In this document: positions 15,001 to 18,000 of the stretch, in pieces
Layout of the letters: every line of letters begins with the position of its first letter
Numbering within the stretch: the stretch's first letter is position 1
Position numbers: made by a program
From: Escherichia coli
GTDB lineage: Bacteria > Pseudomonadota > Gammaproteobacteria > Enterobacterales > Enterobacteriaceae
Length of the DNA: 64,000 bases
Reading direction: 5' to 3' (one strand)
NCBI RefSeq assembly: GCF_016026235.1
Contig: NZ_CP065614.1

Positions 15001-18000
15001 GCTCGTTTTGCGCCAGATGAGGAAGTCACTGCATTTTCTGTCTGCGACATCTCGCCTCCTCAATACTCAAACAGGGATCGTTTCGCAGAGGATACTACAG
15101 TTTTTTGAAATCAGCGACTTGAGAATTGTGACGAAGATCTGTGTTGGCGCACAAATCAACGGGGATTACTGTCGTTTAATGTGATTTAAACTGTGAAATA
15201 GTATGGTTTTCAGTTATGGAAACGCCGGGAGCGGGGAAAACTTGCTTTTTCCCGTTTCCGGGGTTGGACAACTGAGCAACGCGAAGGCGTCAGCTACGAT
15301 GTTCCGGGGACTGCTGATCAGCCCCTGTTGTATTCAGCCATTCTCCGGTCATCTGCAGCAGTTTTCTGGCATCGTGGCTTCTGAGCAACGGAATACCAGC
15401 CTGCCTCAGAACCTCTTCCAGAAGAATATCCCGGCGTCTGCGTTCCGGTCGTAAATGGCTGGCATCATCCAGCTCTACTGCTGCAACAATACTGAACGAA
15501 CGCCGCTCAACGATAACCACATCAACATGCCACTGAGACACCATCCTGAATAACTGCCACCACTGGCGTGATCGTGGCCGGATATTCCCGTTCAGCTGGA
15601 CGATATCCGCGACCCGTACCTGCGGACACAGATACCACCGCTTAAAATCAGCGGTGTGCGGGTTGAACGTCCAGGGCTCACCCGTGCACTGGAAATACTT
15701 CGTGAAGGCGACACACTGGTTGTCTGGAAGCTCGATCGTCTGGGGCGTAGCGTAAAACAGCTTGTTGATATGGTTGGTGAACTGCACAAACAAGGTATTC
15801 AGTTCAAAAGTCTCACAGACGCTATTGATACAGGAACACCGGCGGGGCGTTTCTTTTTTCATGTGATGGCCAGCCTTGCAGAGATGGAGCGAGAGTTGAT
15901 CATCGAACGTACCCGGGCCGGGCTTGATGCAGCAAAGCAACTCGGCCGTAAAGGTGGGCGAAAACCCAAAATGACCAGTAGCAAAATTGAATCGGCTAAA
16001 AAACTATTAGCCAGCGGTATCCCTCCCAGAGACGTAGCTAAAGATCTCGGTGTTTCCGTACCAACGCTGTATCGCTGGTTGCCAGCATCAAAAAATTCTT
16101 AGAGCACATTCAGGAAATTACGGTTTTCATGCTCCACAAATAGTGAAACCGTAAGTTTCTGTTCAAATGCTCCCGCTGGTCCCGCTTCATATCCACAATT
16201 CTGAACAGTCCTTTCATAAAACTGACTTCCCTTTCTGTCAGCAGCGTCTTCTGACGTTGCCAGCATTCACCGCTGGACAGTATTCGCTCTGCATCACCGG
16301 TCCGTATACCTGCCGCATGCAATTGCATCAGCAAAGGAGAATGCTGATTTACACTTCTGAGGATAATCCGGATAAGTAACGCTGCAATAATCAGAACAAT
16401 GAGAATAAAAATAATCAACTTCATTATTTATCTGCTCCTGGCAATTAATTATGCTGAGTTATTACCTTACATATTTCCATATCTCTTTTGGTATCCTGTC
16501 ATATAACTTTCCGGTGATTAACTCCGCTAACCGGTGGTCTGCTGCTGAATTAAATGATTCACGTTCACTGTTTGATAAACTGTCTCTGTTTTTATGAATA
16601 ATTTTTTCCAGCGTATTGACTGATGAACATCGCCGTAACTGATACAGCCATTCCTGTTTTGTTTTTGCCATTTTTATTCCCGCTGAGAACAGATGAATGA
16701 TAAGATTGCCATCGCTTTATTTACGGCGTCTCCATATCCAGGGGGGAACCGGATCAGCATCTGACCAGAGCCCACGTTTTTGTTGTCTGGCTTCGTTCTG
16801 AAGGACAGGCAGCACGGGATCTGTGTTGTACTGCTCATATACCCAGGCAGCCCCGGCCCGAACCATAAACTGATTAATATTCATTCCGTCTGGTGCATAA
16901 ACCTGCCCGAGAATACGACCATAGCGATCTCGCTGAAAATATGTGACGGTAACCGTTTTTCCTGCAACCAGTGATTTCATCATGTCCGTTGACCACCGAC
17001 CATAATCCTGTTTCTTTTCCGGTGCATCAATATTTACCAGCCTGATCCGCACCGCCTTCAGTGAGTCCATTACCTCGATGGTATCACCGTCCAGTACACG
17101 AATAACCCGTCCATGAATATCTGCAGACAATACCGGCCATGAAAAGATAAATAATACCAGTGGAATATATTTCCTCATGTTATTCTCCATATCAGATAAA
17201 TGGCACCTGTATTTCAGGCATCCTGAATATTGCAGCACACATTGAACAACACCTTATTTTGTGAAATTAATCACAAAATATAAAAAATCGACTTAATGCG
17301 GAAAAGACTCTGTGCTACTCAGAACTGTCCGGTCATACTGCCCGACCGGATATTAAGAAGCAAATCACATAAACTCCTTTCAGCCTTCTGACTCCTGGAG
17401 TAATGAAGGCTGCTTTTTTCGTTACACCCTTCCCCGGCAGCGCCGGTGGCAGTGTTCAGCCCTTTTCCGGGCAAACTGCTGCCAGTCTGTCCTGGGCGCA
17501 ACACCGGCAGCCCGTCGCCATGCTTCTGCCGCTTCCATCCAGCGTCCACTGACTTCCAGAATAACGGCCCGCCCGCCGGCACGCTGGTAACGCCAGACCT
17601 GGCCGTTCCGTGAACTGTTTCTGAATCCATTCATTTTCCTGTCCCCCTTTAGTTGTCAGTATTATTGTGATAAATAATTCAGTGGACTGGCTTCCTTTCG
17701 GGTTCGGAAGTTATTTCCTTTTAAGCCTTATTTCCCTGCCTCCTCTCTCTGGGGAGGCTTTTTTTATTTCTCATCAAGCACGGCCTGAAGTTCTGCCTTT
17801 ATCCTGTTCTGGCGACGAATTTTCGCCAGACGCGCTCCCGCATACGCTTCCTCCTCCTGAGAAATATGCTCCGTCACATACCCTTCCGTGTCATACCGGC
17901 AGGCACCGGCTTTCATGGCACACAGATAGCTTTCTGAACGGGTGATGGCCTTCAGCGCCCTGCGCAGTTTTTTATGCGAGAGCGGGATATTCCGCTGCGC

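Follow-up and report, generated by a model that had tools for sequence, protein, structure and literature searches.

A conserved two-hairpin element of the F-plasmid backbone, present in two copies on the transferred strand of an Escherichia coli plasmid sequence

The two repeats of about 75 bases found in the window, i.e. the whole stretch of 64,000 nucleotides of Escherichia coli DNA analysed here (contig NZ_CP065614.1), belong to one and the same element of the F-plasmid backbone, which consists of two hairpins, is strongly conserved, lacks any annotation and is independent of its neighbours. The repeat pair had been predicted at these places, and covariance-model matches set its limits at 15218-15293 (copy A, type A) and 28444-28516 (copy B, type B), both on the plus strand, with E-values of about 1e-17 per copy. 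Folding and covariation analysis supported the view that the repeat is a genuine structured element. Its general plan is RRAAC, a stem of about 20 bp with the loop CTNGC, GTT-G, a second hairpin of composite build (GAC-AA-inner stem-RC-GTC), and AG at the end. The two copies and the features discussed with them are as follows.

14577-14666: CopA RNA, from the Rfam search
14793..15050, minus strand: copB/repA2 (IncFII replicon), the first gene after copy A in the tra direction
15218..15293, plus strand: copy A, whole element, i.e. GGAAAC, hairpin 1, GTT-G, composite hairpin 2 and AG
15221..15265, plus strand: copy A hairpin 1, AAC...GTT, with a 20-position stem and the loop CTTGC
15266..15293, plus strand: copy A 3' module, i.e. 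G, GAC-AA..., inner CGC-GAAG-GCG, GTC-AG
15290..15940, minus strand: ORF A, DUF2726-like (PDDEXK nuclease family), outside the element and varying among plasmids
26395..28326, minus strand: traD, the next gene after copy B in the tra direction
28369..28432, minus strand: hairpin adjoining copy B
28444..28516, plus strand: copy B, whole element, covariance-model match
28447..28490, plus strand: copy B hairpin 1, with the base AAC-G-CCGG / CCGG-G-GTT as in copy A
28491..28516, plus strand: copy B 3' module, G-GAC-AA-CGAGCAAAGCGAGGC-GTC-AG
28581..29258, minus strand: ORF B, a putative lipoprotein gene that F lacks, forming an insertion between traT and the element
53850..53881, plus strand: inverted repeat of oriT with the nic sequence GGGGTGT^GGTGC

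Comparison of the two copies demonstrated no difference in the flanks GGAAACGCCGGG and TTCCGGGGTTGGACAAC, each of which occurs exactly twice; for the latter, a 17-mer, 0.15 occurrences would be expected even with three mismatches allowed. The 3' tails are distinguished by two single-base indels and one substitution and by nothing else, and the central stems differ in both sequence and length. Hairpin 1 of copy A contains a G.G mismatch at position 4 and three G.T wobbles, while that of copy B has an AT-rich top unlike that of copy A, the loop TTTA and two G.T wobbles. Copy A scores 86.6 bits (R1) and 79.9 bits with E 2e-18 (R2) with the covariance model, and copy B 71.2 bits (R1) and 77.8 bits (R2). 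The architecture of the copy A 3' module recurs in diverged members. A weaker upstream match, also predicted, is present as GTTTTCA at about 15206-15212 and 28426-28432.

The pairing is maintained although the sequence is not. In the covariation analysis 90.4% of cells pair and 19 of the 26 pairs change on both sides, whereas none of 500 shuffles reaches the observed level and slid controls yield 43-57%. In diverged members the stem sequences are wholly different, and yet the stem length, the loop CTNGC and the junction are kept. Furthermore, the fold prefers one strand: the fold energy is -36.2 kcal/mol on the plus strand versus -21.2 on the minus strand for copy A, and -28.7 versus -18.4 for copy B, and all 22 variants (22/22) fold as well or better on the plus strand. 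An arm alignment with symmetric scoring gave 38 G.T versus 3 A.C positions on that strand. Mutational bias was rejected as the source of this asymmetry, since the local composition is skewed the opposite way, G and T being enriched on the minus strand (third codon positions).

The preferred strand is the one transferred in conjugation. The F nic sequence is by convention written on the nicked strand, and because GGGGTGT^GGTGC stands on the plus strand of the window, that strand is the transferred (T) strand, on which both copies fold. The copies lie on one strand in the window and in four two-copy F-like loci (L015, L021, L027 and L030), where the tra genes, wherever present, occupy the opposite strand; these same-strand IncF placements include many homologous positions and correspond to about 5-6 independent placements. 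Outside IncF the orientation relative to the neighbouring genes varies. Two of the three copies in an IncN plasmid are on the strand presumed to be transferred, and the remaining IncN copy as well as one of the two copies in pCTU2 cannot be on the T-strand.

The element was found in 3396 of 5426 E. coli genomes, i.e. in most of those with an F-like plasmid, at 6143 plasmid places versus 52 chromosomal ones (median 2 per genome), and there are 1-3 copies per plasmid at fixed positions. The copy B sequence is identical in plasmid F at F 89587-89659, about 40 nt after traT and between traT and traD, without an intervening ORF; F has no type A. In more than 5000 plasmid records, and with many different neighbours, type A is found upstream of the IncFII replicon at the far end of the tra region, and the identical 74-nt core of copy A is present in R100-like and Klebsiella plasmids lacking DUF2726, where it adjoins hok, a PLD nuclease gene, a pyocin immunity gene, DsbA, traX or finO. 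Variable genes are found on either side of the element. Diverged relatives are located upstream of parAB and in an IncN plasmid, and an inverted pair of them flanks the IncL/M-like replicon of pCTU2. Since decayed copies (GTT or GGACAAC mutated) exist in several E. coli and Salmonella plasmids and F is without type A, the element is dispensable. Neither the element nor its motif was described in any paper retrieved by a literature search, the F-plasmid papers of the 1980s-90s being beyond its reach. Rfam 15 gave no match at gathering score near either copy (best local matches 14-19 bits, E 0.2-8) and none for the diverged members.

The original prediction had tied the repeats to two AT-rich cargo ORFs lying immediately upstream. 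This link did not survive the search of other plasmids, in which the neighbours vary without any tie to cargo genes: copy B of F has no ORF next to it, the copy A core occurs without DUF2726, and the element thus stands at its backbone positions in plasmids lacking the cargo ORFs. ORF A is not AT-rich (53% G+C), and its match to DUF2726 proteins is limited to the C-terminal ~120 amino acids. ORF B does agree with its description as an AT-rich lipoprotein gene (35% G+C, lipobox-like LIQGC). As to position, copy A runs with its last four bases into the minus-strand TGA stop of ORF A, whereas copy B lies 65 nt past the stop of ORF B, and a separate GC hairpin is found in between. On its other side, copy B is faced head-to-head by the hairpin at 28369..28432, which folds on the opposite strand (25.6 bits, E 1e-4), is kept at every type-B locus and was matched in L002, L004, L005, L013, L040, L043 and L044; its membership in the element family is doubtful. 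Away from both copies, the window also contains an IncFII G-site-like motif, GCGTTAGC, at 13000-13007, and a true Ter-like site is located at 13217-13229.

As to function, the element may tentatively be regarded as a candidate single-stranded-DNA signal, e.g. a priming or protein-loading site. It would then be a cis-acting signal whose working form is the folded single strand of DNA transferred in conjugation, in which two adjacent helices, the hairpin of about 20 bp and the composite second hairpin, would meet at a conserved junction of AAC/GTT, G and GAC/GTC. Such a fold could stay free of SSB when the T-strand enters the recipient, offering a fixed structure to a protein. Its most likely use would be that of a single-strand initiation or primosome-loading site, where complementary-strand synthesis might be started and run 'downstream' into copB-repA, traD, hok or parAB. 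We infer that the active form is DNA, not RNA, as well as the priming or protein-loading activity itself.

Several observations are consistent with a signal in single-stranded DNA. The conserved unit is without RNA-making parts and the flanks are unrelated up to the ends of the element; no promoter-like site was detected on the plus strand within 500 nt upstream of either copy, nor a U-tract on either strand at either copy. The near-confinement to plasmids points in the same direction, and the variable gene orientation outside IncF is easier to reconcile with a DNA-strand signal than with a gene-linked RNA. Hairpin 2 of some members contains the mini-hairpin GCGAAGC, which is also found in ColIb Frpo1/2 and has been reported at the G4 complementary-strand origin, with the variant CCGAAGG in ssiA of RSF1010 (PMC13037366). 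In pCTU2 the inverted pair brackets the IncL/M-like replicon, so that, if forks diverge from between the copies, each copy would be on the lagging-strand template. Several findings count against this reading: the primase start triplet CTG is not kept after the hairpin, and wobble pairs make up about 9% of the stem positions, an abundance more typical of RNA, G.T pairs in DNA being less stabilising than G.U pairs in RNA. The stem too short for an Frpo-like promoter, the IncN and pCTU2 copies off the T-strand, the dispensability of the element and the small number of independent placements also weigh against it. The broader proposal, held with somewhat greater reserve, is that of an undescribed family of ~75-nt two-hairpin folded single-stranded-DNA signals on the transferred or lagging strand, distributed over several Inc groups of enterobacterial conjugative plasmids at the borders between modules (tra end, replicon, partition, toxin-antitoxin); they could be docking sites for a host or plasmid protein, priming the second strand just upstream of establishment genes or mediating the exchange of backbone modules.

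Among the alternatives, the classical 'traT terminator' would make the element a part of minus-strand mRNA, where it would terminate transcription leakily, as an intrinsic terminator or attenuator, and stabilise the 3' end, so that less read-through would pass from traT to traD, and hok and copB-repA would be shielded from tra read-through at the tra end. It makes biological sense to insulate copB-repA and hok from an operon of 30 kb, and terminator activity downstream of traS/traT in F was reportedly observed by Jalajakumari et al. in 1987. The element does lie just 3' of minus-strand stops, overlapping that of ORF A, following traT in F and finO, traX or DsbA elsewhere, and in the IncF core family hairpin 1 is always followed on the minus strand by GUUUC(U/C). 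However, the tail is A-rich after GUUUCY, neither copy passes the terminator scan and diverged members lack a U-rich tail; a canonical intrinsic terminator was rejected on either strand for want of a U-tract, the tails being GGUUGGAC on the plus strand and GUUUCC followed by A-rich sequence on the minus strand. The wobbles become C.A mismatches on the minus strand, the fold energies drop there (-36.2 to -21.2 and -28.7 to -18.4 kcal/mol), and copy A on that strand is no different from shuffled sequence (z = -1.0), while the 38:3 bias indicates that pairing is maintained on the other strand, antisense to tra and rep genes. Moreover, in Klebsiella-type plasmids the ribosome-binding site of the next minus-strand gene starts about 25 nt past the element, so that transcription must read through it. 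The shared terminator suggested originally is therefore a weak explanation, with no U-tract and a stem selected on the strand antisense to tra and rep, and termination on the minus strand is rather unlikely as the role of the element.

A plus-strand RNA module, also improbable, would be the structured 3' part of antisense transcripts whose starts lie within the 5' ends of traD, nuc or copB; otherwise it would be a hairpin for processing or insulation that counters antisense transcription into tra genes. In its favour are the stems rich in G.U, the tandem G.A-type internal loops of diverged members and the two-hairpin shape, which is typical of plasmid antisense RNAs, and plus-strand antisense RNAs exist in this IncFII region, as the Rfam families AS-traI, AS-traG and AS-pc02 match the window. 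TTTT follows hairpin 2 on the plus strand in Klebsiella- and Pantoea-type copies, and the element of L006 is located just downstream of a plus-strand vapBC operon. The E. coli copies, however, have no U-tract, the plus strand upstream of both is devoid of promoter-like sites and the left flanks are unrelated among contexts. No Rfam match was obtained even at E<10, although the pHK01 antisense RNAs are in Rfam.

The homology between plasmids often breaks exactly at the ends of the element, many matches spanning query 30-104 alone with 100% identity, and the window and L001 share the identical 74-nt core with both flanks different. With variable genes on both sides, and with cargo including DUF2726 held between two copies in L021 and L047, this would suit a folded single-strand recombination site, attC-like in principle, for the exchange of backbone modules and small cassettes between plasmids. 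As with attC bottom strands, the strand that folds is antisense to the genes next to it, and AAC/GTT triplets form the base of the stem. The original prediction had found no convincing integron core sites and the present analysis agrees: GTTGGAC fits GTTRRRY as R', but its 5' partner is RGAAAC, with purines where R'' (RYYYAAC) needs YYY, so that AAC/GTT alone pair and the R''/R' complementarity fails. An integron attC was rejected on this test. The stem irregularities are a single G.G mismatch at position 4 in most copies and a bulged G in the L009, L015, L039 lineage. No integrase or HUH enzyme is consistently linked to the element, and intI is not annotated at the IncF loci examined (annotation only). 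A mobile element was likewise rejected, since target duplications are absent and F offers no precise empty site, diverging about 35 nt before the element and not at its edge. Two positions fixed in thousands of plasmids look more like a backbone feature retained amid a high turnover of flanks than like active cassette traffic, and a recombination site is quite unlikely.

Least probable among these alternatives is a relic palindromic repeat (REP/MITE-like), paired through quasi-palindrome template switching and without present function. Decayed copies, the either-way orientation relative to genes outside IncF and a loop inverted between two plasmids of one lineage (GCGAG versus CTCGC), which is a DNA-level palindrome event, would agree with it. 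Nevertheless, members from IncF, IncN and pCTU2 have the non-palindromic 3' module and the junction in common despite a complete turnover of the stem sequence; the length of the stem and its loop are conserved, the wobble pairs show a strand bias opposite to the background composition, and there are only 1-3 copies per plasmid at fixed positions.

The other identities considered were rejected. A double-stranded operator for a dimeric protein is contradicted by stems that turn over completely in sequence and yet stay complementary, and a Tus/Ter site by the presence of GTTGTCCAAC, not GTTGTAAC. As a pseudo-nic site for TraI the element has a loose resemblance to oriT, with AAAACTTG.TTTTT in the top of the copy A hairpin and GGGGT.TGG after it; the likeness to GGGGTGT^GGTGC falls partly in the variable stem top, and type B has none. 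The gene between the inverted copies of pCTU2 is a RepA-like initiator, not a RAYT, so a REPtron was dismissed. An Frpo-like single-stranded promoter would need a longer stem than 20 positions to hold -35/-10 boxes about 17 bp apart, no larger conserved fold exists in the 271-nt contexts, and the homology to ColIb Frpo1/2 is confined to 7-10-nt word matches. For a G4-type primase site, CTG after GGACAA is restricted to E. coli type A and Pantoea-type copies and is absent in type B and the Klebsiella type; the phage origins of G4, St-1 and alpha3 type do not match the element.

IncF plasmids are the main carriers of resistance and virulence genes in Enterobacteriaceae, and the element is still unannotated and without an Rfam family although F is the best-studied plasmid. 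[quoted passage not shown] A recombination or insulation point, if true, would help to explain the turnover of cargo at the same two backbone positions. Whichever reading holds, the boundaries of backbone modules can be marked in practice with the covariance model.

Among known systems, REP/BIME sequences resemble the element in that both are short, imperfectly palindromic, mismatched in a strand-asymmetric way and placed at the ends of genes in either orientation, but they are chromosomal and present in hundreds of copies, whereas the element is nearly plasmid-only, with 1-3 copies per plasmid and no RAYT-like gene seen. The terminator said to follow traT in F (Jalajakumari et al. in 1987) would occupy the same traT-traD interval as the F element and would likewise place a hairpin immediately behind the gene; the element differs by its lack of a U-tract, the weakening of its stem on the sense strand, its conserved non-terminator 3' module and its recurrence elsewhere in the backbone and in further Inc groups. 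The attC sites are also imperfect palindromes at gene 3' ends, whose folding strand is antisense, whose stem has AAC/GTT at its base and varies at its top, and whose neighbouring genes vary; the element, however, pairs only 3 bp of the 7-bp R''/R' box, seems to have no regular set of extrahelical bases, holds fixed backbone positions with no integrase seen at the loci examined, and possesses a conserved second hairpin that attC lacks. Frpo and ssi1-3 of F and ColIb-P9 share with it the fold on the transferred strand, the conservation in conjugative plasmids and the mini-hairpins; Frpo is about 330 nt long, rebuilds -35/-10 boxes and belongs to the leading region, in contrast to the 75 nt, the 20-bp stem without hexamers and the location of the element in the last-transferred part of the plasmid. 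Finally, the ssi signals (G4-type, phiX174-type, RSF1010 ssiA/ssiB) act only as single-stranded DNA, are intergenic, near replicons or on the transferred strand, and contain GCGAAGC-type mini-hairpins as some members of the present family do, whereas the element has no sequence similarity to G4-type phage origins and does not conserve the start triplet CTG; like the element, they are short (40-100 nt), strand-specific and hairpin-based.

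The paired repeat of the original prediction was present at both stretches of this F-like plasmid, whose tra genes lie on the - strand, and a covariance model set its limits as follows.

15218-15293, + strand: copy A (type A), E about 1e-17.
28444-28516, + strand: copy B (type B), E about 1e-17.

Pairwise alignment of the two copies demonstrated identical flanks, GGAAACGCCGGG and TTCCGGGGTTGGACAAC, and a near-identical tail, GAGCAA.GCG.AGGCGTCAG, with a central stem that differs. A 17-mer of the element occurs exactly twice in the 64 kb, 0.15 occurrences being expected even at three mismatches. 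Within the ORF order traG, traS, traT, ORF B, traD, traI, traX, finO, ORF A, copB and repA1, copy B is positioned between ORF B, a putative lipoprotein gene with a lipobox-like motif, and traD, while copy A, 168 nt upstream of copB, runs into the stop codon of the DUF2726-like ORF A. Both ORFs had been described as AT-rich, which holds for ORF B (35% G+C) but not for ORF A (53% G+C). The Rfam matches in the window were CopA, FinP, the traJ leader and pHK01 antisense RNAs; no Rfam family matched either copy or the diverged members, even at E<10.

Further structures surround copy B. A hairpin at 28369-28432, pairing better on the - strand (U.G, G.U), stands head-to-head with it, 11 nt apart; it is followed by GCCGGCGAAGCCGG, is kept at all traT-traD loci examined, and may represent the real leader or terminator structure of traD. 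A GC hairpin (28523-28539 +, GGCCAGC-AGG-GCTGGCC) separates ORF B from copy B and precedes CGGATAATTTTCTT; at the matching place, directly 3' of traT, F also has a GC hairpin, though a different one. The traD ORF of the window (26395-28326 -, 643 aa) may be truncated, having an odd tail beside an IS-like 402-aa ORF (24901-26109 -) whose DNA has an 87% repeat at 62153-62252. The first 12 kb hold large near-identical duplications (431-2369 versus 8323-10258, 6677-7497 versus 11243-12062), probably IS or transposon copies, and group II intron pieces are found in the leading region (56493-61633).

Comparison with other plasmids separates the element from the ORFs to which it had been tied. F carries copy B immediately between traT and traD, no ORF separating it from either gene, and R100-like Klebsiella plasmids share the 74-nt core of copy A at 100% identity; there its neighbours are hok and a small unrelated ORF, and neither flank is related to that in the window. 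Elsewhere, type A is neighboured by traX, finO, DsbA, a pyocin immunity gene or DUF2726 on the tra side and by a PLD nuclease, hok or copB on the other; in the traT-traD interval, additional genes are found to either side of the element. Occurrence at the same positions in plasmids without the cargo ORFs, named beforehand as evidence to the contrary, was mostly what was found, and the element belongs to the backbone, not to the cargo. The plasmid records that match number at least 5000 for each copy, and the element is found in 3396 of 5426 complete E. coli genomes, at 6143 places on plasmids versus 52 on chromosomes.

In many genera, nuclease genes are very frequent next to type A: PLD/NucT-like, thermonuclease, DUF2726/PDDEXK, PIN and S-type pyocin, the last accompanied by its immunity gene. 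In a Buttiauxella plasmid (L021, 4529-4604 and 7050-7125) and a Klebsiella variicola plasmid (L047, 1500-1575), a cargo block of two small ORFs and DUF2726 follows one copy; in L021 a second copy closes the block, resulting in a cassette-like layout. In the window, the entire IncFII replicon (oriR, repA1, copA, copB) is bordered directly by two exact copies of a 12-mer, TTTTCAGTTATG (13142-13153 + and 15207-15218 +), the right one abutting copy A and the left one following a GC hairpin (13110-13140). At one mismatch the 12-mer has 5 matches against 0.46 expected, and the pair could mark a replicon-swap junction. The region upstream of copB (15112-15199) has an 80% identical counterpart at 4529-4616, which is without the element.

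One genome per species was scanned with the pattern GTTGGACAAC-N(6-22)-AGGCGTCAG, giving 8 chance matches and 26 true loci, the latter in Pantoea, Erwinia, Kluyvera, Buttiauxella, Izhakiella, Entomohabitans, Klebsiella, Kosakonia, Lelliottia, Enterobacter and Citrobacter. Folding and covariance analysis across homologues, the check proposed originally, revealed strong covariation: when 22 distinct sequences are aligned on the model, pairing is seen in 90.4% of cells, both sides change in 19 of 26 pairs, 0 of 500 shuffles reach any measure and slid partners bring pairing down to 43-57%. Fitting this alignment to the model favours structure, yet independently folded sequences show the same helix. 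The shared plan is as follows.

5' part (hairpin 1): RRAAC; stem of ~20 positions, mismatched or with a small internal loop close to its base; loop CTNGC; GTT.
3' part: one G; composite hairpin 2 of GAC, AA, a variable inner stem-loop, RC and GTC; then AG.

Diverged members found by the model keep this plan with a wholly different hairpin-1 sequence. One such lineage, found in 1906 plasmid records (Salmonella virulence plasmids among them), is located upstream of parAB, and another comprises 286 records, including IncN, whose copies replace the outer stem GAC/GTC of hairpin 2 by ACCG/TGGT, a further compensatory change. It is clear that a strand-specific two-helix structure with conserved junction and loop is under selection. 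Databases have contained the element since the sequencing of F and R100; no repeated, covarying, strand-specific family is described in the full-text literature searched, and Rfam has no model for it. Loci L030 (7441-7512) and L052 (31578-31649) carry the same diverged element, with an inverted hairpin-1 loop (GCGAG versus CTCGC) as the sole difference, a flip typical of DNA palindromes.

In all variants the + strand folds as well as or better than its complement, with RNA energies of -36.2 (+) versus -21.2 (-) kcal/mol for copy A and -28.7 (+) versus -18.4 (-) kcal/mol for copy B, and the same ranking as DNA. Arm-to-arm alignment, scored so that both kinds of transition mismatch are treated alike, yielded 368 Watson-Crick positions and 32 transversions (mostly conserved G.G); as read on the + strand, 38 further positions are G.T and 3 are A.C. 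Since the third codon positions of traI, traD and traG identify the - strand as the G/T-rich one, local composition cannot account for the G.T excess on +, so the strand on which pairing is kept up is the one antisense to the tra and rep genes. The transferred strand is identified by one feature.

53850-53881, + strand: F-type nic sequence GGGGTGT^GGTGC with inverted repeat.

With nic on +, this is the strand transferred 5' to 3' in conjugation (the T-strand), and the same geometry makes the tra region the last to enter. In copy A, the top of hairpin 1 (15232-15270; GGGGAAAACTTGCTTTTTCCC ... GGGGTTGG) loosely resembles this oriT region on the same strand (inverted repeat GCAAAAACTTGTTTTTGC plus nic region GTGGGGTGT^GG), a resemblance absent from type B. 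Replication of IncFII (R1) is unidirectional, away from repA, and + is the leading-strand template in vegetative replication, in agreement with the positions of a Ter-like site, ATGTTGTAACTAA (13217-13229 +), just past oriR, and of the mini-hairpin GCGTTAGC (13000-13007 +), about 210 nt beyond it, downstream of oriR. On that reading, + would be extensively single-stranded only during conjugation.

In the window and in each of the four F-like loci that have two copies, both copies are on one strand. The strand rule is imperfect outside IncF: in pCIT-eb1a (IncN) two of three copies are on the presumed transferred strand, and pCTU2 has an inverted pair (7878-7949 - and 9390-9457 +) bracketing an IncL/M-like replicon, called from a RepA_IncFII_LM-like protein gene (8311-8910) and a PK-repBA pseudoknot (9026-9149). 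Relative to its neighbours, the element outside IncF can be on the sense or on the antisense strand; the constant is thus not gene orientation.

Tentatively, the element may be considered a single-stranded DNA signal on the transferred strand, because it is a conserved unit without means to make or end RNA, has unrelated flanks, and is nearly confined to conjugative plasmids, always on the T-strand in IncF. Synthesis primed at it would run towards copB-repA, traD, hok or parAB, whose promoters would become double-stranded early. Against this stand the non-conserved primase start triplet CTG, the exceptions in IncN and pCTU2, the decay of some copies and the abundant G.T pairs, more typical of RNA; taken together, the four rivals are more probable. 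A leaky terminator on the sense strand is a doubtful one: a terminator after traT was reportedly described by Jalajakumari et al. in 1987; a terminator scan found no such site at either copy. An RNA module of the + strand, which the G.T pairs would suit, is improbable; no + strand promoter-like site was detected at either copy. A folded recombination site appears quite unlikely, with no target duplications at the element and no empty site in F, which is without type A and diverges about 35 nt before the element position, not at its edge. Rejection of an integron attC, already part of the original prediction, was borne out, as the core sites fail and AAC/GTT alone pair. A relic palindrome, the least probable, would fit the decayed copies and sits poorly with the selected structure.

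The GCGTTAGC mini-hairpin, on the same strand as the elements, is typical of G4-type sites, being the motif of St-1/alpha3 G4-type origins, and is probably the IncFII G-site. Nomura is said to have reported, in 1991, eleven single-strand initiation (ssi) sites in F, R6K, R100 and ColE2, one of which might coincide with the element. No similarity of the element to any phage or to Frpo1/2 of ColIb was detected, and folds of the 271-nt contexts contained no larger shared structure able to rebuild a promoter. The single-stranded DNA reading is supported by a GCGAAGC mini-hairpin that some members share with known single-strand initiation elements, in which it recurs (PMC13037366), and which is also carried by the ColIb sequences of Frpo, the single-stranded DNA promoter of leading regions.
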